From: a virus
Virus record (IMG/VR): IMGVR_UViG_3300008050_000019
Direction: 5' to 3' (one strand)
Length of the DNA stretch: 64,000 bases
Shown here one piece after another: positions 6,404 to 52,311 of this stretch. The notes beneath the pieces were generated by a model. It worked only from the letters and a program-made list of their open reading frames with translations. It was not told the DNA's origin and made no database searches. How positions within the stretch are numbered: the stretch's first letter is position 1; each line of letters opens with the position of its first letter. The position numbers and the translations under genes were made by a program.

Positions 6404-6865
6404 ATGTTAAGTATAATTAGTAACATGATTATAGTCTGGGAAGTTATAACTGGTGAAAATCATAATATTTTCGCCAGGCAGGAAGATGCTATTTTATTAC
6501 ATGGTATAGTAAAGCATATGGTCACATCTAATGGAAAAGTTCCAGAGGGGTACCCTTTAAGTGTTAATGAAAAGCATATATTTGGTATAGAATCAATTGT
6601 GCTAATGACCAGTGTTGCAAGTGTTTTAGCAGATTGGATGATGAACATAAGCATTGATCAGATTGCTGTCGGGTTCGAGGATGCAGTCTGGCCCCCAGAT
6701 ACTCCTTATGCTGGATACCCAGTTTTCACAGATGCGGAAAAAACTAATATACAGATTGCACGTGCACAAAAAAAGCTGCTTTCATCAATTGATGAAAGTG
6801 AAAGACTTCTTTTATTCAATACAACATTAACGACTGCACAATTATTTGCAACTGGTAGTAATTAA
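6404..6865 (+). CDS. hypothetical protein, translationally coupled to downstream fibre-like gene
   Basis: Stop overlaps ATG of 6865..8523 (TAATGG); only plus-strand gene pair in the window. Confidence 0.45.
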   Translation: MLSIISNMIIVWEVITGENHNIFARQEDAILLHGIVKHMVTSNGKVPEGYPLSVNEKHIFGIESIVLMTSVASVLADWMMNISIDQIAVGFEDAVWPPDTPYAGYPVFTDAEKTNIQIARAQKKLLSSIDESERLLLFNTTLTTAQLFATGSN

Positions 6866-8523
6866 TGGCAGCTATTGATTTTAATCTGCGATGTTTTCGA
6901 GGAAGCGGTGGCGTGCTCGATTATGATACCGCTTCAACTTCATTAATGACAGGTTCGGTCGTCAGTTGCTCAGTTGATATTTATAACCGCAACGGTTCAC
7001 TACTTGCAGGCCCATTTCACTCCATAAGTGGTTCCGTAACGAAGATTTCTGCAGGAGGAACAGACACTTGGACATTTGATCCCGCTCATGCAGACGTTAT
7101 TGCTTCTACTAGATTGTCACGCCAGTTCGACGAACACCTTAGGTTCCGATTCACTGAAACTGTTCCTAGTGCGTCGTCTGTTGCAGATGTATGGGTAACT
7201 GTTAACAATCAAGACAAAATAGCCAGCGATTATCCGAACAAAAAGTTATTTTGTGATGGTTTCTTCGGAGATAATAACGCAAGTTATGCTACTCCAGAAT
7301 TTGGTAATGCTTCAAAGCTCAACCCTACACGCCAAGTTCGTGAAATGAGTGCCATGGCACCAAGTATTGGATCAACCCATTATATGATTGTGAACCAGGT
7401 TTATGGTGTAAGAACAGATACATTCACAGGAGTAACATTCGAGGGTGATCCTCTAGGTGCAATTGTCGCACGGGGTGGAAACACGCTGTCGCTTGATAAC
7501 TGTTACTTTAAGAATATGGATCTTCGCGGATTTCTTGGAGGAACGTACGATGGAACGTTTACTGTTGATGGCGGAAAGTTACAGACGGGCTTTAAGCATG
7601 CAAATGGTGTTTTAACATGCGTCAATGAAGTTGGGCTTGAGGGAGATATTGACCTTCAATCAACTACAATAATGATTGGTGATGTTAAAGGGACCGCCGC
7701 TGTCATAGACTGCTCAGCACCTTTAACAGATCTTATTCTCGGTATCGATAAGGGTGATATTCAATTAGATAATTTGGATTCTGGCATGAATGTTTCTATA
7801 ACAGGTGTCGGTGGGACGTTAAAGCTTCCTGTCGGCAATGCAAATCCAGCCAGTGTTAAGGTGGGTGGGTATATTATCATAACAGATGACTCAGACGTTC
7901 CGTGGGATAATCAAAATAATATTGGCGGCTGCGAAATCACCGCTTCCGTTATTGCATCAAGAACGAACGTTTTGACAAATCTTCCTGCGCAACAAGGGCC
8001 AGGACAGTGGGACACTACAAGTTCGCTGACAACTTCAAGCATAGGAACAAGTGTTTGGAATTCGCTGACGTCCTCATTCAGTACATCTGGATCTGCAGGT
8101 GAAATTCTTATTAATAACTTTTTGCTTGCTGGTGAAACTGCGACGGCGATGTCAGGGACTGCTGCAGGTGTCTGGGATGCGTTAACATCATCATTTAATA
8201 TATCTGGATCTGCAGGTGATGCACTAATTAATAGCTATCTCTTTGCGTCAGGAACAGCAGAGGCATTGTCAGGTACGGCAGCTGATGTGTGGGCAGTTCA
8301 ATCATCATCACTTACCGTACCTGGTTCAACTGGTATGATGCTTACCAATATATCATCTTCTGTTAACTTTATCGAAGGGATAGAGGGCGGAAGGTGGAAG
8401 ATAATTAGTAACCAGATGATATTTTATGGTACTGACAATACGACTGAAATTGCTAGATTTAATCTACTTGATGACTTGGGAGCGCCAACTACAGCGTCGC
8501 CATTTGAAAGAGTAAGAACATAA
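6865..8523 (+). CDS. putative tail fibre / receptor-binding-like structural protein with C-terminal tandem repeats
   Basis: 552 aa, Gly/Thr/Ser/Asn-rich with beta-helix-like 'GGNTLSLDNCYF' segments; three ~40-aa C-terminal repeats (W-x-LTSSF-x-SGSAG-x-LIN-x-L-x-A-x-A-x-SGTAA-x-VW). Confidence 0.4.
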   Translation: MAAIDFNLRCFRGSGGVLDYDTASTSLMTGSVVSCSVDIYNRNGSLLAGPFHSISGSVTKISAGGTDTWTFDPAHADVIASTRLSRQFDEHLRFRFTETVPSASSVADVWVTVNNQDKIASDYPNKKLFCDGFFGDNNASYATPEFGNASKLNPTRQVREMSAMAPSIGSTHYMIVNQVYGVRTDTFTGVTFEGDPLGAIVARGGNTLSLDNCYFKNMDLRGFLGGTYDGTFTVDGGKLQTGFKHANGVLTCVNEVGLEGDIDLQSTTIMIGDVKGTAAVIDCSAPLTDLILGIDKGDIQLDNLDSGMNVSITGVGGTLKLPVGNANPASVKVGGYIIITDDSDVPWDNQNNIGGCEITASVIASRTNVLTNLPAQQGPGQWDTTSSLTTSSIGTSVWNSLTSSFSTSGSAGEILINNFLLAGETATAMSGTAAGVWDALTSSFNISGSAGDALINSYLFASGTAEALSGTAADVWAVQSSSLTVPGSTGMMLTNISSSVNFIEGIEGGRWKIISNQMIFYGTDNTTEIARFNLLDDLGAPTTASPFERVRT

Positions 8524-36980: not shown

Positions 36981-37155
36981 CTTTCTTTTTCTCGTCTTTA
37001 TTTTTGTTTTCTGGCCAATAACCTTTCTCTTTAAGAACTGACACGCTAAACTTTACTGTTTCAGTTGCTGCGTCTAACGCGACCTTTACAACAAAAGTCT
37101 CTGCTGCCTTTACAGCAAGCTTTTTTGCTAAATCGCCGAAAATAACATTAAGCAC
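36970..37155 (-). CDS. small hypothetical protein
   Basis: ORF track; overlaps the sigma factor stop by 8 nt. Confidence 0.35.
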   Translation of the reverse strand: MLNVIFGDLAKKLAVKAAETFVVKVALDAATETVKFSVSVLKEKGYWPENKNKDEKKKDEK

Positions 37156-37999
37156 ATGAAGCCTTCATCTTCTCTAACTCTTTAGAGGAGATTGGAAACT
37201 TTTTATGATCTTTTGGATTTTCCGTTAAACCAAATCTCATTCTAAGTATCTTTTCTTCTCTAGGGTTTAGTGAGTTTAAAACCCCAGATAAGAGAGCAGT
37301 AAGTTCTTTTTTATTAATTAAATCAAGTGGGGATTCTGAGTCGACGTCTTCTATTACATCTTTTAATGTTCTTGAGTCAGCGCCATCTGAGCCAATGGGC
37401 TTATCAATAGATACCAGCAAAGGAATACCTGAAATTGCTGATTGGACTGTCGTTTCAGTCACCCCTATTATCGATGCAAGCTCGGCGCAGGTAGGTTCTT
37501 GTGCATGCAGTTCAATGAATTCATCACGTGCCAATTGTATTCGAACGTAAACGTCAGTAACCCTACCAGAGGTCTTTATCTGCTTACTTTGTGATGCAAC
37601 TTCGCGCCCGATATTTTGGCGAATCCACCAAGTTGCATATGTTGAGAATCTAAACCCTTTTCTCCAATCAAATAACTCAGTAGCTCTGATTAAACCAATA
37701 TTGCCTGCTGCGATTAAGTCATCAAGACTGCAGCCTCTATTTTGGAACCTTTTTGCTATCGAGACAACTAAGCGTAAGTTAGATTCTATCATCTTATTCT
37801 TAGCTCTTGATTTCTCACTTTTGCTAATTGCTTTTGAAGATTCTATTCTTATTTCGCCATCAGGCTCTCTTGTATATTTAACATCCTCAAAGCCCTCAAT
37901 TTTTTGAGAAAGAATAATTTCTTGTTCTTTTGTAAGCAAAGGTCTTTTACCAATCTGTTTAAGATAAAATCCTACGCCACCACTATCTTGTTTAGCCAC
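37148..37999 (-). CDS. RNA polymerase sigma factor, sigma-70 family
   Basis: Region 1.2/2.1 'YLKQIGKRPLLTKEQEIILSQKI'; region 2.2-2.4 'NLRLVVSIAKRFQNRGCSLDDLIAAGNIGLIRATELFDWRKGFRFSTYATWWIRQNI'; region 4 HTH 'LNPREEKILRMRFGL'. Confidence 0.85.
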   Translation of the reverse strand: MAKQDSGGVGFYLKQIGKRPLLTKEQEIILSQKIEGFEDVKYTREPDGEIRIESSKAISKSEKSRAKNKMIESNLRLVVSIAKRFQNRGCSLDDLIAAGNIGLIRATELFDWRKGFRFSTYATWWIRQNIGREVASQSKQIKTSGRVTDVYVRIQLARDEFIELHAQEPTCAELASIIGVTETTVQSAISGIPLLVSIDKPIGSDGADSRTLKDVIEDVDSESPLDLINKKELTALLSGVLNSLNPREEKILRMRFGLTENPKDHKKFPISSKELEKMKASCA

Positions 38000-39442: not shown

Positions 39443-39680
39443 CGCCTTTTTTTGCCTTTTTTAAGAAAAGAATATCTTCTCGTGATATTTTTTCTATTCT
39501 ATTATCTACATAGACGTTGCAGAAGGGTCCATGAGCCCATACATCATAACGTCTATGAAATGTCATGTTTGTTTTACCAGAATTAAAACCCTCTTGTAAC
39601 GAGAGAATTATTCCTATTTTATTTAATGATGATATCACAATAAGATCACCAATTTCATATAAAGTTTTATCTACACACAT
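39429..39680 (-). CDS. small 'GDLV-motif' family protein
   Basis: 'YEIGDLIVISS' motif. Confidence 0.35.
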   Translation of the reverse strand: MCVDKTLYEIGDLIVISSLNKIGIILSLQEGFNSGKTNMTFHRRYDVWAHGPFCNVYVDNRIEKISREDILFLKKAKKGDGKK

Positions 39681-41532
39681 TTGAAAAAATTCCCCTTAGA
39701 ATGTTTGTGTATCGGGACGCATTTAGAGGATATAGTTCTATCAATCTTGCCACATCATTAAAGACTATAGAATCCCATTGCAGAAAGAACTGTGTTTGTG
39801 TTATTATATACATTTCGTATGCATCCCCTGGTGTGCATATACCTACACCACAGTTGCTCGTATTTAGCGCTACATCACTTTCATTGAACCCAGCAACTGT
39901 CTGGGCTGCTTCGTCTGTAATAAGAATGATGTAAGGGTATGCCCCTGTTGATGTTACAGTAGATTCTCTCCAATTGATAAGTGCTGGATTTGTGCTGTTC
40001 GCTAAATCATGAACTACATCGTATGAAGGCTCTACACCTGGATATGATGCGGTAAGATTGTTCAATGCTGCAGAAAATACAGTAAAATCAACGAGATTTA
40101 CTAGTACATTATAATTATCTCTTCTACCAGGAAATACAACTAAACCAAACCTATGTTCTGTCCCTTGAAAGTCTGCAACATAATTACTTATCCCTGCTTG
40201 CAGAGCGAACATAGCTTGTGTCATTGAACCTGAGCCATCTATCACAAAAATTATATCTACCTTATCATGTGGTGTAAGATCCTCATCGATGAGCCCATCA
40301 CAGTCATTGTCAACCCCATCACAAGATTCTTGCTCAGGATAAACTGGTCCAATGCAGCTTGACCAAATGCCTGAAGTGCATGTTCTCTCGCCTAAAACGC
40401 ATTGTCCGATACCAGCCGTAGCAGGATCTCCGCATGCGTCTGTTAACTCATCGATTGTGCCGTCGCAATCATCATCCCAGTTATTACACACTTCGGGCTC
40501 GGTAGCAAAAGAATAACATGTACCCCATACACCATTAGAATCGCATATTGAAATGCCGGTACCGCAATTGATAAGCTCTCCCGTAGCGTGATCTAAGACA
40601 TTTTGTCGGCATACTCTAGCGTCACCGACTGTACATGCACAATCTTCATCGATTATCCCATCACAGTCATTATCAAAACCATCACATATTTCTCGTACTG
40701 GTTTTCTAGCATTACACCCTATCCAGTTGCCCACGTTGCAACTTTCTATACCACTTTCACATGAGGTTCTGCATAACCTCTCAAGCCCTTCATCAATTGC
40801 ACCATTACAGTCATTATCAAAACCATCGCAAATTTCAGGCGAAGGGTGTACAGCACCAACGCAATATGTTTCTTCTGATGTACATATTTGAGTGCCAAGT
40901 TGACACAAACCAACTTCACTTGACGGGCCGCATGAATCTAAAATTTCTTCGTCAGTAATACCATCACAATTATTATCAAAACCATCGCAAGTTTCTGGTG
41001 TCGGCAAAATAACGCCTGTACATTGTCCCCACACACCATGAGTACACCTTTGTTTTCCAGTTCTGCAAACGCTAGGGCTAATATAACTGTCGACAGCTGG
41101 ACCAGTCCAGCAATCCCGTGAATAATTGTCAATTACACCATTACAGTCATTATCAAAACCATCGCAGATTTCTATCCCGCCTGGGTTTATTTCGGCTATA
41201 TTGTCGTTACAATCGTTATCACAAGAGTTGTAGCCATCACCATCACCATCATGTCCTTCGTCAACTAAACCATCGCAGTCATTGTCCAAACCATCACAGA
41301 TTTCATTAACTTGTCCGATGAACCCTTCACAAAATGCCATTTCATTTTTAGCATCGCATGAAGTAATCCCCTTTTGGCAAGTGCCAATAGAATCTTTAAG
41401 ATTATCTGTTATTATTTTTCCGTTATTTATTATACACGGGCGTGGGGACTGACATACTCTCGATAAGTTATCATCTTCACATGCAGCAATAAAAAGCAGG
41501 GAGATAGATAAAAGTATATATTTCAACTTCAT
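39667..41532 (-). CDS. lipoprotein with seven Cys-rich CDGxDNDCDGxxDE (MopE-like putative metal-binding) repeats and C-terminal vWA-like domain
   Basis: Lipobox signal 'LLFIAAC'; repeats 'EICDGFDNDCDG(I/L)IDE' x7; C-terminal MIDAS-like 'DIIFVIDGSGSM'. Confidence 0.6.
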   Translation of the reverse strand: MKLKYILLSISLLFIAACEDDNLSRVCQSPRPCIINNGKIITDNLKDSIGTCQKGITSCDAKNEMAFCEGFIGQVNEICDGLDNDCDGLVDEGHDGDGDGYNSCDNDCNDNIAEINPGGIEICDGFDNDCNGVIDNYSRDCWTGPAVDSYISPSVCRTGKQRCTHGVWGQCTGVILPTPETCDGFDNNCDGITDEEILDSCGPSSEVGLCQLGTQICTSEETYCVGAVHPSPEICDGFDNDCNGAIDEGLERLCRTSCESGIESCNVGNWIGCNARKPVREICDGFDNDCDGIIDEDCACTVGDARVCRQNVLDHATGELINCGTGISICDSNGVWGTCYSFATEPEVCNNWDDDCDGTIDELTDACGDPATAGIGQCVLGERTCTSGIWSSCIGPVYPEQESCDGVDNDCDGLIDEDLTPHDKVDIIFVIDGSGSMTQAMFALQAGISNYVADFQGTEHRFGLVVFPGRRDNYNVLVNLVDFTVFSAALNNLTASYPGVEPSYDVVHDLANSTNPALINWRESTVTSTGAYPYIILITDEAAQTVAGFNESDVALNTSNCGVGICTPGDAYEMYIITQTQFFLQWDSIVFNDVARLIELYPLNASRYTNILRGIFSNVCR

Positions 41533-41948
41533 ATATACTAACGTATATACGAAAAGTACCTATACGTTAATTAACTGTGTGTATCTTCTGTTGATTGCTC
41601 TGTTTTTTTCCTAAGCATTGAAACTACGGTAGCTAGGACAACTGTAAGAGCTAGGAAAAAACTGCCTGTACCAAATTGCCCAATGCCAAATGATATAGCA
41701 GAAAGGATACAATATATAATCATCGCTGGATAAATAATCATAATTCGATCCTAATAATTTTAGATTCTTCTGGTGTTCTATCTTCTATAGGTTCATCATC
41801 ACAGGGTAATGGAATTTGTATATATAACCGTTGTGGTTGCTCTTTCTGCTCTTCGCGAAGTTTGCTTAATGCATCAATTAACCATGCTGGTGTATAATTA
41901 CTCATATTGTGTCCTAATAATATTATTACTATATGTTAACATAGTACA

Positions 41949-42233
41949 CTAGCGACGAGCACTAATTTTACCCTTTATTTCGCCTAATTTTCCAATTATT
42001 ATGATGTTTTGTTCAACAATTCTTTCTAATTTTTCGTCTTGCTTAGCAACGTCTTTTTCCAAATTAGCGATTCGTGCTTCAAGGACTCGCCCGTCTTCTC
42101 TAGAAAGATAATTCTTGGCGCCCATATCATTAACATAAGCAATGGCACCACCAGTTGCTATTACTATCGCAACTATCCAGCTCCCGAAATTCTTAAAGAG
42201 CGTTAGTGTATTATAGGACGTCATCTTGGGCAT
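41949..42233 (-). CDS. membrane-anchored coiled-coil protein
   Basis: N-terminal TM helix 'FGSWIVAIVIATGGAIAYV'. Confidence 0.4.
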   Translation of the reverse strand: MPKMTSYNTLTLFKNFGSWIVAIVIATGGAIAYVNDMGAKNYLSREDGRVLEARIANLEKDVAKQDEKLERIVEQNIIIIGKLGEIKGKISARR

Positions 42234-42492
42234 CTAGTATTTCCTCTATTTCCTCTATTTCCTTTAAAATCTCTTTTGTTTGGCTGCGAGCATGCTGTGT
42301 GGCATTAGCTGTTTGTGGCACATCAATTTGGAGTGTTCTTCTTGCCATCACGTAACTATTTTTATGTTCCTGAGTATATTGGTATGTTTGTGCAATATTA
42401 ATCTGGTTCAACGCTTCCGACTCCGGGTGTCCTTTGTCACATGAGACTATAGGTAAGACAAGCAAGACGATTGTTAGTATTTTATAACGCAC
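42211..42492 (-). CDS. small lipoprotein
   Basis: 'MRYKILTIVLLVLPIVSC' lipobox. Confidence 0.45.
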   Translation of the reverse strand: MRYKILTIVLLVLPIVSCDKGHPESEALNQINIAQTYQYTQEHKNSYVMARRTLQIDVPQTANATQHARSQTKEILKEIEEIEEILDAQDDVL

Positions 42493-43212: not shown

Positions 43213-45031
<1,819 letters not shown>

Positions 45032-48414: not shown

Positions 48415-51400
48415 CTAGATTTCTCGCTTCACCTTAATATATCTCTCGGTTCTAAACAGTCTATTATTCGTAATATCTGTATCATTATAGAATATATGTC
48501 CGGTTATTGGGCATATATAAACTTGCCCAACGCCAGCGCCACCTGAAGGAGGGAATTCTGCCTGATCTTCAGAGCCGCCCTCATCATCTCTTGGTCTGAC
48601 ATCAGCATTTCTAACAATTTCCCAGGCTTCGTTCGTTTTCCCTAATTTAACTGCTGTTGCAAGAGTTAATTGCGTTGAAGAATCGACGGAAGCAATAACA
48701 TGTTCGTCAGTGATGATGCTACTTTCGACTACCCTAAATAAATCATTTACTGCAAATGATCCAGTCGCAAATGTATTACCTCCTGTGGCAGTAACCTGAT
48801 TTACAGCAGGCCCAGTTGAAAATGATGTTCCTGAATCTTGAATGAAAACGGCTCTGACTATATGGTTTGCCATGTAGTTGGTATCATTAGCAGTCAATAA
48901 CCTTTGATTATCACTATATCCGATATTGTCACCAGCAGCGTTCAAGGCGAAATTACCAGCCATATTAGGTGTTACAGCTGCTGTGCCCTGCCATTGGTAA
49001 AAAGCAAGTTTCCAATATCGTCTGGCACTATTTGTGCCGAATGATCCACTTCCACCTAATAATTCTAAATCAATAACAACTTCGTTAGGTGACGTTGCAA
49101 ATGAATCATTTGCAGCGGAGTCATCATGGAATGCATCGGTTCGCAAGTTCCATGCTGGATGATCTTCATTAGACTGGTACGATGAACGTAGAGTCCAGCT
49201 GCCAGAACCAGCAGCGTCAGTTGCGCTGTATAAGTCCATTTTAACATCTGCATATGTTGCAGCAGGCATTGCTTCCCATGCAAACCCCAATTTTGAAGTG
49301 ATTATATCTGCTTGTAGATCAATACCTGTTTGGAATCCAGCAGTTGTTGTTAATGTCCCGCCACTGCCTCCGATGGTCTGCGTGTTGTTTGTTCCGTCAA
49401 GCAGTAGTCTTCTCTGGTATGCAGCAAGCATTGCTGATGAGCTAGCAGCTAGCACAAAAATGTCATCAGATGTTACTGACGCTAATGAAGCAACATCCAG
49501 AAACCCGCCAACGCACGAATGTGATTCCGCAGTCTTAACAGATAAGGCTTCAGCAAGCGGCGATTCTATCAATTCGGTTTTTTGCGCAAAAATATCATAG
49601 CCCCAAGTAATTTCTTGCGTCGAGTCTTTAACAAGGCCTATTGATACAGGGAATGTGTAATATTCATCTTGAACAAATTCACTTCCACCAGTACCAGATC
49701 CAGAAAATGCTACTTCGACGCCATTTGCAAGTTTCTCTGAGCTAGAGTGTACTAGTTTTGTCGATGCAGCCGCCCTGTGATGAACTCTGCTTCTATACCA
49801 AGTTGATGATCCTGTGCTCCATTGCCATGATGTTGGGGTAGAAAAAACAAGGTCATGCCTTCCTATCGCAGCTCCATTTCTAGGCCTAAATATATATGCG
49901 ACCCCGCTATCATCAGTAAACCAATTGTAGCCATGACATTCAGTAGCCTCAGCCGCCTGCCAAGAACCTGGACTTCCCCCTATAGTACCTGTAGCGTCGA
50001 ATTCCTCACCGATACAGGTCCAGTTAAAGCTAGACACTTCTGATGTACCTGAATTAACAATCTGTATAGTATTATTATCCAAGACGCCAGTCACGACAAA
50101 AGAGCCGCTATTAATACTATTGGAGGTAGTTGACAATACTATCCTTTTACCAACATGATGCTCTGTAAAATCATCGGCTGGAATAACGACTTCTTGGACA
50201 AATTTGCCTCCTATGATCGTTGGTGAAGACATTGATGTTCCAGTGCCTGATCCAGATACAACCTTTCCATTCGGCTCAAGCAAGCCGATTGTTGATGCGG
50301 TGTCTGCAGAGAACCACGCTGCACCACCTGGAGCGACGGACACATGGTATGATACATCAGTCAGGCCATCATCGAGCGTGTCACCATAAAATCCTACGCC
50401 TATGTTATTTGATCCAGACAGCCATGAATCGATTGGGATTCGTGTGATATTTTTTGAAATGAATTGATTATCACCATTCTGTGTTGCAAGCCAAATGTCA
50501 TCGCTTTCTGGATCACCTGTATCTTTTCTATTTATGATAAGCGTGTTAATTGAACCAGACTGGCCGGCGACTCCAGCATTGAGACCTAAATGTATAAACC
50601 CGGCAGCATTGACTTCTGCTGTTGTATGCATACTATAATATGCATGTGAGAAGTCGCTGCCTTGTATGCTATTTAATCTCTGAATTCCTGTTGTATTGTT
50701 ACCTGCTGTCTGTGTAGATACCCAATATACATTTCCGCTTGAATCAACATCAATCAATGTACCATGGTTATTTCTAACCGCACTGGACCCTCTTGGTACA
50801 AATCCTGCTAAACCGCGAACAGAATCACTGTCAATCGTATTAAAATCTGAGCCTGCATCGCTAACTGTTACGACCGAACCACTTATAATCCCCGTCGATG
50901 TAAATACGTCAATGTATGACAATCCATCACGATGTAATGCCCAGACTCTATCTAGCTCTGCTGCGTTAGTATGAAGCCCTGACTTATCAATAGCAATACC
51001 CAGGGTATTATTGCTTTGTAGTCCGGCTACATCATAGATACCGCTTGCAGTTGTCCCTATAACATTTAACACTGCATCACCGGCAGCATCTATCATTATC
51101 AACGCACCTACGTCGGTGCCTGTATCATTAGTATCACCATCACTATCACATGCAAGATATAAATACCCGTTCCGGCCAGGCTTCAAGTCTCTGAATTGGA
51201 CGTTAGTTGGTAATGTGGGAAAAGCTGACAAAGCTTCTGTTGATATTGAGTCGCTTGCATCTTTCCTCGATGGCGTCTCACCAGTAAATCTTTTCCATGC
51301 CCATAGAGATCGTGAAGTTGTTGCATTCGCGTGATCATTAGTGGCCCTATCAGTTACTGTCCACCAAATCTTCCCTGATTTCCGGGGTGATGATCCAGAA

Positions 51401-52311
51401 CCAGCAGCCAAGCCATCAAAGCACATACCTGATATTATACTTGACACAGAGCTTGCGTTTGATGCTTGCGTCGGATAATCTATGACATATGGCACTTGAG
51501 TAGGCGCAGGAGTATCTGTATCACAGAATAAAGTCTGGATGTTGACGAACCCTCGTGATGTTGACGAGGCATTATACCGATCAGATAAAGTTTCAGCAGA
51601 GGTATAGCCGTCAGCCTCCGCAGCACCAGGAGCAAAAGCACCTACATAATATGGTTGTCTTATGAAGTAGTACTCAGCGTCATCACCCGCGCCATTTAAA
51701 TCGCCTGTTTTTGTAGCGAAAATTGAGTAAATATAGTGACCTTCTTCGCCCGTATTGGAGCCAGAAATTGCAGGACTGCCATTAGAGCCAGTGGCAAAAT
51801 CAAGGCATCCACTGCTAAACACTGATCCTACACCGAGCGGTGTAACAGCTGTTTCATTAAAAAATGCCTCACGCCCTGAGGGGTGTCCAAAAACGCTACC
51901 AATCTGCTTGAAATTGATATCGGTACTTGAAACAGCCGCATCGGGTGTCGTTGTAGTTGCCCGAGCGCTGATTCTTCCTTGAGCGTATGCGATCTGCGAT
52001 GGTTGCGCTGGGGCAAGGTTCGTAGTTGTTATGAATCTTCGAAGCCTCATGTATTGGCCTATGGAAGACAGGGCTGGCATTGAATTGTTTAAGCGCACAT
52101 TATAGTAGCTTAACTCTAAAGGTGATGTGCCCGACGCTTCATTTAGAATATGGTCTCCCTTGAACAACAGATCGCCATCGATAGCCACTGTTGATAATGC
52201 AGTTCCAGCAACCAATGAACGAAAAGCTCTTTCTGCCTCGTACTTATAAAGTACATTAGGTTTATAGACCCATGTCCCGTCGTCAAGTTTGATTTTTAAA
52301 TAGCCCTTCAT
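48415..52311 (-). CDS. very large (1298 aa) Ser/Thr/Gly-rich putative virion structural protein (tail fibre / host-specificity-like)
   Basis: Uninterrupted 3.9-kb ORF with low-complexity beta-rich composition typical of phage fibre/spike proteins; no catalytic motif recognised. Confidence 0.45.
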   Translation of the reverse strand: MKGYLKIKLDDGTWVYKPNVLYKYEAERAFRSLVAGTALSTVAIDGDLLFKGDHILNEASGTSPLELSYYNVRLNNSMPALSSIGQYMRLRRFITTTNLAPAQPSQIAYAQGRISARATTTTPDAAVSSTDINFKQIGSVFGHPSGREAFFNETAVTPLGVGSVFSSGCLDFATGSNGSPAISGSNTGEEGHYIYSIFATKTGDLNGAGDDAEYYFIRQPYYVGAFAPGAAEADGYTSAETLSDRYNASSTSRGFVNIQTLFCDTDTPAPTQVPYVIDYPTQASNASSVSSIISGMCFDGLAAGSGSSPRKSGKIWWTVTDRATNDHANATTSRSLWAWKRFTGETPSRKDASDSISTEALSAFPTLPTNVQFRDLKPGRNGYLYLACDSDGDTNDTGTDVGALIMIDAAGDAVLNVIGTTASGIYDVAGLQSNNTLGIAIDKSGLHTNAAELDRVWALHRDGLSYIDVFTSTGIISGSVVTVSDAGSDFNTIDSDSVRGLAGFVPRGSSAVRNNHGTLIDVDSSGNVYWVSTQTAGNNTTGIQRLNSIQGSDFSHAYYSMHTTAEVNAAGFIHLGLNAGVAGQSGSINTLIINRKDTGDPESDDIWLATQNGDNQFISKNITRIPIDSWLSGSNNIGVGFYGDTLDDGLTDVSYHVSVAPGGAAWFSADTASTIGLLEPNGKVVSGSGTGTSMSSPTIIGGKFVQEVVIPADDFTEHHVGKRIVLSTTSNSINSGSFVVTGVLDNNTIQIVNSGTSEVSSFNWTCIGEEFDATGTIGGSPGSWQAAEATECHGYNWFTDDSGVAYIFRPRNGAAIGRHDLVFSTPTSWQWSTGSSTWYRSRVHHRAAASTKLVHSSSEKLANGVEVAFSGSGTGGSEFVQDEYYTFPVSIGLVKDSTQEITWGYDIFAQKTELIESPLAEALSVKTAESHSCVGGFLDVASLASVTSDDIFVLAASSSAMLAAYQRRLLLDGTNNTQTIGGSGGTLTTTAGFQTGIDLQADIITSKLGFAWEAMPAATYADVKMDLYSATDAAGSGSWTLRSSYQSNEDHPAWNLRTDAFHDDSAANDSFATSPNEVVIDLELLGGSGSFGTNSARRYWKLAFYQWQGTAAVTPNMAGNFALNAAGDNIGYSDNQRLLTANDTNYMANHIVRAVFIQDSGTSFSTGPAVNQVTATGGNTFATGSFAVNDLFRVVESSIITDEHVIASVDSSTQLTLATAVKLGKTNEAWEIVRNADVRPRDDEGGSEDQAEFPPSGGAGVGQVYICPITGHIFYNDTDITNNRLFRTERYIKVKREI

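Follow-up and report, generated by a model that had tools for sequence, protein, structure and literature searches.

A gene of the 64,000-nucleotide virus stretch IMGVR_UViG_3300008050_000019 (hereafter the window) encodes a protein of 621 residues that is very probably an exported lipoprotein, assembled from an N-terminal lipid anchor, a cysteine-rich stalk with seven MopE-type motifs and a C-terminal head of the von Willebrand factor A (vWA) type bearing a MIDAS (metal ion-dependent adhesion site). The protein contains PF11617 and is a member of the vWA superfamily at the fold level. As regards its use, the masking of a host receptor, and with it superinfection exclusion, is the role that we tentatively place first; the explanation as a whole, anatomy and role combined, is given a probability of about 0.45. 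The protein would represent a phage-borne form of the integrin-like vWA lipoproteins, strongly conserved and with a function that is unexplained.

The top 120 clusters of a word-indexed protein search, which returned more than 5,000 matches owing to the repeats, were taken as orthologues, and the conservation alignment was built from 64 of these 120 (41–51% identity). Cys18, the E/C/D/C skeletons of the motifs, D432, S434, S436, E501, D540, E541, C561, C566 and C620 are invariant in the 64 orthologues, and the cysteines of the stalk are all invariant or nearly so. Selection acts on the lipobox, the cysteines, the motif residues and the MIDAS residues. The parts of the gene are listed below with true residue numbers, Met1 counted; each MopE-type motif was delimited by Pfam, a regular expression and DNA comparison.

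39667..41532 (stop codon included), minus strand: complete gene for the 621-residue MopE-repeat/vWA lipoprotein, with an ATG start, from the list of open reading frames (ORFs)
41479..41532, minus strand: signal peptide (residues 1-17) and lipobox Cys18 (…L-F-I-A-A-C), read directly from the sequence
40279..41478, minus strand: Cys-rich stalk, residues 19-418, with seven MopE-type motifs and beta-hairpin modules of 4-6 Cys in alternation
41254..41304, minus strand: MopE-type motif 1, residues 77-93, EICDGLDNDCDGLVDEG
41233..41250, minus strand: extra DxDxDG loop, residues 95-100, DGDGDG, first element of the DxDxDG…CDDxN…P segment aligned to the MopE* N-terminus
41122..41172, minus strand: MopE-type motif 2, residues 121-137
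40945..40995, minus strand: MopE-type motif 3, residues 180-196
40786..40836, minus strand: MopE-type motif 4, residues 233-249
40642..40692, minus strand: MopE-type motif 5, residues 281-297
40444..40494, minus strand: MopE-type motif 6, residues 347-363, degenerate, EVCNNWDDDCDGTIDEL
40279..40329, minus strand: MopE-type motif 7, residues 402-418, which adjoins the vWA domain directly
39670..40263, minus strand: vWA (integrin I-domain-like) head, residues 424-621, from the AlphaFold2 (AF2) model, Foldseek and a profile match
40225..40239, minus strand: MIDAS DxSxS, D432-G-S434-G-S436, invariant in the 64 orthologues
40030..40032, minus strand: E501, invariant Glu where the MIDAS Thr would stand, from the profile alignment to integrin alphaX
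39910..39915, minus strand: D540-E541 at the end of beta4, position of the MIDAS Asp, 'ITDE', invariant and aligned to integrin 'VITDG'

The C-terminal domain is, in the models, a true vWA fold. The AF2 model of the full protein, calculated with the 64-sequence alignment (mean predicted local distance difference test score, pLDDT, of 88.7; predicted template modeling score, pTM, of 0.48), runs from a signal helix through a short disordered linker after the lipid Cys and a series of beta-hairpins up to around residue 420 into a complete domain of alternating beta and alpha elements. Comparison of this model with the PDB by Foldseek gave 347 matches at E≤1e-3, all of them vWA domains, with target-normalised template modeling scores of 0.65–0.73 to the I-domains of integrins alphaM, alphaL and alphaX and to collagen VI, and of ~0.5 to CMG2; collagen VI N5, CMG2, factor B and integrin beta-I were found as further matches. 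The C-terminal MIDAS-containing vWA-like domain that had been recognised from the sequence alone is well supported by the scores to the integrin I-domains. When the profile of the 64 orthologues was compared with the alphaX I-domain (E=1.2e-5), DxSGS aligned on DGSGS, E501 on the Thr ('GGGxE' versus 'GFT') and D540 on the Asp ('ITDE' versus 'ITDG'). Integrin beta-I domains use a Glu at the fourth MIDAS position (D119/S121/S123/E220/D251 in beta3). With DxSxS, D540 and a Glu as in beta-I, all five MIDAS positions therefore hold invariant candidate metal ligands, and residues D432, S434, S436, E501 and D540 may form a site that holds a divalent cation and a ligand carboxylate.

The head resembles the integrin alpha-I and beta-I domains and CMG2/ANTXR2 in its fold and in its DxSxS…D MIDAS, sharing the Glu at the fourth position with beta-I. 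It differs from them in sequence (12–18% identity), in having no integrin context and in showing no evidence of the adjacent-to-MIDAS (ADMIDAS) or synergistic metal-binding (SyMBS) sites. The DxSxS motif is kept in 80 of 85 viral homologues. A search of BFVD retrieved one related fragment from an uncultured virus (29% identity, E=1e-20) and otherwise generic viral vWA proteins.

At the other end of the protein the N-terminus reads MKLKYILLSISLLFIAA up to Cys18 (MKLKYILLSISLLFIAAC in its longer form), and a basic n-region (MKLK), a hydrophobic h-region (YILLSISLLF) and the lipobox I-A-A-C18 could be read in it by eye. The pattern [LVI][ASTVI][GAS]C, taken as the mark of a lipobox near the N-terminus, is present in the 621-residue protein. 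The lipobox signal proposed in the sequence-only reading is confirmed by its conservation in 117 of 121 proteins (the window protein and the 120 closest cluster representatives) and in 81 of the 85 viral homologues, down to 29% identity. Within the family, position -3 is L, F, I, V or M in 103 of 117 members, position -1 is G, A or S in 111 of 117 and position +1 is Cys in all 117. Positions +2 to +6 are rich in acidic residues (two or more in 96/117) and contain almost no Lys or Arg. In the window protein the sequence from the lipid Cys onwards is C-E-D-D-N, with Glu and not Asp at +2, and only 13 of the 117 family members carry Asp there; the enterobacterial rule for inner-membrane retention of lipoproteins, which bears on Asp at +2, is therefore mostly inapplicable. 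Lipidation of Cys18, cleavage by signal peptidase II and export through Sec are predicted from these features. Display on the envelope of the infected cell, which had been suggested beforehand, is a well-founded prediction for the extracytoplasmic side, because the lipobox is conserved and the ~46 invariant cysteines could form disulfides only outside the cytoplasm.

The stalk contains 43 Cys and 13% Asp. Seven copies of the motif E-x-C-[DN]-[GN]-x-D-[DN]-[DN]-C-[DN]-G-x-x-D were located by regular expression at residues 77, 121, 180, 233, 281, 347 and 402, and Pfam places its family Cu-binding_MopE (PF11617) on seven separate stretches with 133 bits (gathering cut-off 27, E=4e-39), so that the seven Cys-rich MopE-like repeats noticed at first sight were recovered in full by the hidden Markov model (HMM) search, far above the cut-off. 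When the protein was shuffled 20,000 times, not a single core motif arose. The seven DNA segments that code for the motifs are 64–83% identical over ~50 nt, and the repeats are therefore old and held by selection; a recent expansion or duplication of the repeats, or an artefact of assembly, was ruled out by the same identities. Modelled alone (residues 20-420), the stalk consists of beta-hairpins only (pLDDT 91). The non-lipidated cysteines add up to 46, of which 43 belong to the stalk and 3 to the head, and up to 23 disulfides would be possible; both numbers being odd, at least one disulfide must join stalk and head if all the cysteines are paired. Pairing of the stalk cysteines, with oxidative folding outside the cytoplasm, would be expected from this composition.

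DxDxDG-type loops number five by a strict definition and eight by a relaxed one (the seven motifs plus DGDGDG at residues 95-100), and the stretch D-N-D-C-D-G-x-x-D-E within each motif fits the oxygen-ligand DxDxDG pattern of calcium loops. All candidate ligands of the motifs are Asp, Asn or Glu, which suits Ca2+, and the mature chain contains 101 Asp+Glu versus 27 Lys+Arg, with only 7 His and 4 Met. Structural Ca2+ is most likely the ion that these putative loops bind. A short acidic pattern of the type C-x-D-x-x-D-N-D-x-D-G-x-x-D has been likened to the Cys-rich region of teneurin (PMC3278476), and the motifs share this pattern with teneurin and with the loops of thrombospondin type-3 repeats and COMP, probably with calcium-dependent rigidity; the likeness to teneurin and the type-3 repeats is one of motif only, with no Pfam TSP_3 match and no Foldseek match of the stalk.

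The name of the Pfam family and the strength of the match would point to a different metal; on this view the motifs would supply the infected cell with copper, or with some other scarce metal, by scavenging it in the way that MopE serves methanotrophs. The very acidic stalk could be cited in favour, and immobilised-metal affinity data suggested that residues of the MopE* N-terminus take part in weak Cu(II) binding (PMC3423442). However, only residues 95-142 of the phage protein match MopE*, over residues 6-53 of the 2VOV chain (E=0.028, or E=0.0028 with the profile), and in the crystal of MopE* the N-terminal ~46 residues are missing or disordered, while the Cu(I) site is formed by His132, His203 and kynurenine in another domain, and CaCl2 stabilises the protein (PMC3423442). 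Copper capture is unlikely because the motif stretch of MopE falls outside this high-affinity site; moreover, the PF11617 HMM has been noted to represent just a small part of MopE/CorA and to lack specificity (PMC6189053), and His and Met are few. The phage protein shares with MopE/CorA (PDB 2VOV) the PF11617 motif together with the DxDGDG…CxD…P segment in front of it, but MopE has one such segment, in a disordered tail and without a vWA domain, and its Cu(I) domain is absent here. Membership of MopE/CorA was rejected, since no homology to the Cu(I) domain was found and only the N-terminal segment outside the Cu site matches. The 'Cu-binding' family name is thus misleading, the motif being here most likely a structural calcium loop. 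Metal capture, which had been among the roles first proposed, would in addition leave the invariant MIDAS head unexplained; we give it a very slim chance.

The family comprises at least 120 full-length orthologue clusters (41–51% identity, 81–100% coverage, 584–663 residues) on contigs of up to 210 kb. A scan of IMG/VR yielded 500 viral stretches that encode relatives, on contigs of up to 281 kb, and the best 80 of the 500 show 29–50% identity and extend nearly all to the end of the vWA domain. Homologues lie on viral contigs of ~190–281 kb, with cysteine counts that are mostly ~45–60 across the 85 viral loci. The exact 621-residue protein is present in the JGI metagenome 3300025133 and on a contig of the 0.2–1 Mb class, and its carrier is therefore a jumbo-sized uncultured phage. 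An exhaustive HMMER search with the head alone gave 181 clusters at E≤1e-3 among 1.84 billion representatives and superseded a word-indexed search that had returned 3 proteins. Most of the head-bearing clusters are proteins of ~580–740 residues that have a C-terminal head; another group, of ~390–410 residues, consists also of lipoproteins, with 2–3 MopE motifs and the head signatures …EPSYD… and …TDEE…. The same head subtype is carried by short-stalk (~390–410 residues) and long-stalk (to ~770 residues) lipoproteins, so that the head stays constant and the stalk varies in length. All genomic contexts examined were phage-like, including those of three short-stalk representatives that were looked up (with DnaB, RNA ligase, ThyX and HNH genes). 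A tblastn search of the protein against 50,697 deposited phage records gave no match, so that there is no cultured relative to lend a function or a host, and a literature search for the PF11617 family name found no phage paper.

Beside one orthologue, on a marine TARA scaffold (L006), a 161-residue lipoprotein (MKNYLLILSTLVLSSC…) is encoded immediately upstream (6513-6998), which suggests that exported phage proteins are locally clustered in some lineages. Among cellular organisms, for which one genome of each of 185,579 prokaryotic species was scanned, the best 80 relatives correspond to the stalk only, mostly to query residues ~45–420 and none past residue 528, with 27–43% identity. They come almost all from high-GC (rich in guanine and cytosine) Myxococcota, Bradymonadia and 'Deltaproteobacteria', in agreement with the remark in the sequence-only reading that such repeats are typical of myxobacterial proteins. 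In metagenome-assembled genomes (MAGs) of Sandaracinaceae/Bradymonadia (L070, 3794-7339, and L010) the order of the domains is reversed, a signal peptide and a DxSGS vWA-like start (FLVVVDNSGSM) being followed by the MopE repeats; it follows that repeated shuffling of the stalk and vWA modules has taken place in Myxococcota.

Among described architectures the nearest is that of CglD from Myxococcus xanthus, a 1130-residue outer-membrane-exposed lipoprotein of gliding motility with twelve DxDxDG repeats, 46 Cys, a disulfide-bonded Cys-rich stalk and, on the C-terminal side, a vWA domain whose MIDAS is needed for gliding (bioRxiv 10.1101/2023.10.19.562135). These parts recur in unchanged order in the phage protein, which has eight loops of the DxDxDG type, 46 Cys besides the lipidated one and a head with a MIDAS. 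In contrast, the Ca-binding half of CglD resembles COMP/thrombospondin type-3 repeats with EGF-like modules, whereas the phage stalk is made of PF11617 motifs and hairpins, and no Pfam match to the TSP_3 or EGF families was seen at E≤1 in the 621-residue protein; CglD is also a cellular motility protein of a high-GC host, while the phage gene has ~40% GC. CglD was compared by its published description only and is best regarded as an architectural analogue; for this reason, and for the lack of a TSP_3/EGF signal, the phage protein was not filed as a member of the CglD family. CglB is another outer-membrane vWA/MIDAS lipoprotein adhesin of Myxococcus.

A lipoprotein from a Myxococcaceae MAG (L045, 5728-9285 of JBGATB010000013.1) has the lipobox FLLAGC and 14 PF11617 motifs with hairpins, and its stalk matches the phage stalk with 32% identity over 446 residues (E=1e-48). 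The junction between motif 7 and the vWA domain is also present in this protein, K-A-D-V-L-M-V-V-D-N-S-G-S-M standing against K-V-D-I-I-F-V-I-D-G-S-G-S-M of the phage, and is followed by GSAVEQ and AVTDEPDQ. It differs from the phage protein in its size (1185 residues), its 106 Cys, its extra C-terminal domain and its origin in a cellular genome of 60–70% GC, and its head shows no detectable similarity beyond the first motif and no Pfam VWA match.

Phage-encoded exported lipoproteins are few and small, and Llp, Cor, Ltp and the o-spanins act on receptors or on the envelope. The window protein contrasts with these small lipoproteins in being large, costly and conserved, and in having the building plan of an adhesion receptor. 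Llp of phage T5 is a lipoprotein that binds the host receptor FhuA and causes superinfection exclusion (PMC9586334). Like the Llp/Cor family, whose members Llp and Cor bind a host outer-membrane protein, the window protein is phage-encoded and predicted to be exported and lipid-anchored; unlike it, Llp is small and single-domain, without vWA, repeats or Cys-rich stalk, and the two are unrelated in fold. No sequence likeness to known exclusion lipoproteins was found in PHROGs or by tblastn against the 50,697 phage records.

In the mechanism that we propose, the infected cell would export the phage protein via Sec, Cys18 would be modified with diacylglycerol and signal peptidase II would cleave in front of it, leaving a mature protein of 604 residues hanging from the membrane on the extracytoplasmic side. 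Residues 19-418 would fold oxidatively into a rod in which eight acidic loops alternate with disulfide-stapled beta-hairpins, stiffened by Ca2+, and the MIDAS cation of the head would complete its coordination with a carboxylate of a ligand protein. The whole would act as a membrane-tethered, metal-dependent binding device in which the head does the work and the stalk serves as a spacer of variable length. The head may occupy or mask a conserved component of the host envelope, for example a receptor, and so bar adsorption or injection by further phages; such masking would also spare the progeny from debris and would be analogous in function to T5 Llp, although built from quite different parts.

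Several points weigh against this interpretation. At the level of the Pfam profiles the vWA assignment, which stands at the fold level with the 347 PDB matches, was not recovered, since the Pfam models VWA (PF00092) and VWA_2 (PF13519) gave 22.8 bits versus a cut-off of 23.8, just under threshold, and 22.4 bits versus 27, respectively; several orthologues do carry precomputed matches to PF00092 or PF13519. The canonical MIDAS Thr is replaced by Glu (E501). The pTM of the AF2 models, only 0.48–0.50, is too low to fix the overall shape or the rod length, and the stalk model gave 0 matches to the PDB by Foldseek at E≤1e-3 (best E=0.12), the best of those below threshold being chains of small disulfide modules with no relation to it. 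Disulfide map, Ca sites and MIDAS geometry are predictions, in a family known from sequence and predicted structure alone. The final membrane and leaflet depend on the host, as does the choice between the cell surface and the periplasmic face. With regard to receptor masking in particular, scans of the protein with NCBIfam and PADLOC gave nothing usable, PHROGs returned only phrog_7371 (function not known) at E=0.35, and no neighbour was found in more than 19 of the 85 loci by ORF clustering (GroEL being the commonest), so that the gene context gives no functional hint. Exclusion lipoproteins are believed to be usually variable accessory genes, and the known ones are small, whereas the present protein is large and costly and its head is kept in hundreds of diverse phages.

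The window is a tailed-phage segment of ~40% GC with nearly all ORFs of at least 100 residues on one strand, and carries six tRNAs, rIIA, rIIB, a DNA ligase and an RNA ligase, together with a sigma-70 family factor, Nudix, GroEL and a 5'-3' exonuclease. A megablast search of deposited phages with the 10 kb surrounding the gene found nothing similar at the DNA level, and a scan for promoters and terminators around the gene gave nothing better than shuffles. Shine-Dalgarno (SD)-like 4-mers at -20..-4 precede 29% of 68 ORFs (at least 100 residues) versus a background of 14%, a weak usage, and the regions upstream of the window ORFs are A/T-rich and C-poor; the Bacteroidota -7 motif TAnnTTTG is not enriched in the window (74 observed versus 68 expected). 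The top two phage-labelled matches of GroEL are Acinetobacter phage records (48.9% identity), and several of the nearest cultured-phage matches are Bacteroides and Flavobacterium phages (45–46%); the GroEL and rIIA comparisons gave no clear nearest host. In Bacteroidota the lipoprotein export signals SDDDD, SDDFE and QKDDE drive surface exposure (PMC5080379). The stretch C-E-D-D-N and the acidic +2 to +6 positions in 96/117 of the family resemble these signals, a likeness that may be incidental in a protein that is acidic as a whole. As a lead, a Bacteroidota host would be compatible with the weak SD usage, the ~40% GC, the GroEL matches and the acidic +2 to +6 positions. The following neighbours bear on the alternatives considered below.

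34867-36171, minus strand: MoxR-type AAA_5 ATPase (phrog_1297)
33433-34866, minus strand: DUF2201 protein (VWA-like and metallopeptidase-like domains; phrog_1314), adjoining the MoxR-type ATPase
42211-42492, minus strand: 93-residue lipoprotein with lipobox I-V-S-C, just upstream of the gene
41949-42233, minus strand: 94-residue protein with an N-terminal transmembrane segment and a coiled coil, overlapping the 93-residue lipoprotein gene
41571-41741, minus strand: 56-residue protein with two transmembrane segments and a charged C-tail, just upstream of the gene

The upstream trio, for which no database match was found, has the look of an o-spanin, i-spanin and holin set, except that the gene of the lipoprotein leads. 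A 34%-identical counterpart of the 94-residue protein follows GroEL in one other locus only (L001). The label 'HNH endonuclease' given to phrog_1314 in PHROGs looks wrong for a DUF2201 protein.

The same anatomy could serve a surface adhesin, the lipoprotein being flipped to the cell surface and its integrin-like head sticking the infected cells to other cells, particles or matrix; in a variant it would take over a host adhesion or gliding function like that of CglD/CglB, which would favour transmission of the progeny. The architecture matches that of CglD point by point, although by description only and with no TSP_3/EGF match in Pfam at E≤1, stalked vWA heads are typical of adhesins, and integrin I-domains and CMG2 gave the best matches in structure. 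The E-D-D-N after Cys18 would fit surface export of the Bacteroidota kind (PMC5080379), and the weak SD usage, the ~40% GC and the Bacteroides/Flavobacterium phage GroEL matches would be compatible with such a host; however, TAnnTTTG shows no enrichment, and the protein is so acidic overall that the acidic residues after the Cys may have no such meaning. An adhesin is ranked second, after receptor masking, and appears to us rather unlikely. To our knowledge there is no precedent for a phage-encoded adhesin of such kind for the infected cell. A wider formulation, in which large phages of an uncultured group widespread in the environment give the infected cell an integrin-like receptor of their own, with a MIDAS head on a calcium-stiffened stalk of tunable length, and so reprogram what its envelope binds, either by sticking it to cells or particles for better transmission or by bridging the periplasm to keep the envelope intact through a long infection, is considered unlikely.

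A rigid stalk might instead span the periplasm, with the head gripping peptidoglycan or a component of the opposite membrane, and so stabilise or remodel the envelope during a long infection cycle or join in its disruption. The spanin/holin-like trio on the same strand just upstream (41571-42492), the Amidase_2 and VanY cell-wall hydrolase genes found within a few kb in related phages and a stalk length that varies between lineages as if it were a tuned spacer would all suit such a tether or lysis accessory. Nevertheless, only the transmembrane/coiled-coil protein of the trio recurs, in one other locus, and no neighbour is conserved in more than 19/85 loci; we know of no vWA protein with a part in phage lysis, and the proposal seems quite improbable. 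Unimolecular spanins have a C-terminal transmembrane segment, and the assignment of the protein as one of them was rejected, as it has none. That the head belongs to an adhesin of the tail or capsid, with an N-terminus that is not a functional signal peptide, would find parallels in phage vWA proteins annotated as structural (e.g. the 'virion structural protein' of Pseudomonas phage PaMx28) and in many other phage and giant-virus proteins with vWA domains. This is highly improbable given the lipobox kept in 81/85 homologues, the ~46 conserved Cys in small knots, which cannot oxidise in the cytoplasm where tailed-phage virions are assembled, the lack of a structural match in PHROGs, and neighbours that are a sigma factor, Nudix, GroEL and an exonuclease and not morphogenesis genes. 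MoxR ATPases usually work with vWA partners, and a MoxR-type AAA_5 ATPase lies 3.3 kb away, so that the vWA domain might be thought an adaptor of this enzyme. The ATPase, however, already has its canonical partner in the adjoining DUF2201 protein, which bears out the earlier statement that the lipoprotein is a second vWA protein in addition to the MoxR partner; the lipoprotein carries an export signal while MoxR is cytoplasmic, and a cluster of AAA-type ATPases that includes that of the window, and that may not be the MoxR gene, occurs in only 16/85 loci. A cofactor of the ATPase is the least credible of the roles considered.

The gene is present in hundreds of uncultured large phages and has no match in the cultured phage genomes searched. 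If the ligand of the head is a host receptor, superinfection exclusion would have been solved here by a new structure; if the protein acts as an adhesin, phages would alter the stickiness of infected cells, which matters for particle-attached microbial communities; and if it is an integrin-like receptor of the infected cell, it would found a new class of phage 'virocell' surface-remodelling factors. It would in that event be an independent, phage-borne lineage of integrin-like vWA lipoproteins, which have so far been described only in Myxococcus gliding motility. The stalk is of interest in itself as a compact, repeat-built and probably Ca-dependent disulfide-rich spacer without a solved structural analogue.

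Other genes of the window deserve mention. The largest (48415-52311, minus strand) is an ORF of 1298 residues that gave no Pfam or PHROG match and no tblastn match in the 50,697 deposited phage records. GroEL (43213-44874, minus strand) is full-length (TIGR02348, 633 bits), and no GroES was seen adjoining it. The sigma-70 factor (37148-37999, minus strand; 283 residues) is group-1/2-like, with regions 1.2-4 and without region 1.1, and its scores fall far short of all NCBIfam equivalog cut-offs. A homologue of the eukaryotic major vault protein (MVP), of 858 residues (30704-33280, minus strand), was recognised by Pfam (MVP_shoulder 3.8e-19, Vault_3 2.5e-8) and by its match to rat MVP 2qzv_A (E=5.7e-10 over residues 464-806). 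Phage MVPs were reported in a 2023 preprint (10.1101/2023.11.10.566534). In the order of transcription the homologue is the gene directly downstream of the MoxR/DUF2201 pair, an adjacency that may merit attention.

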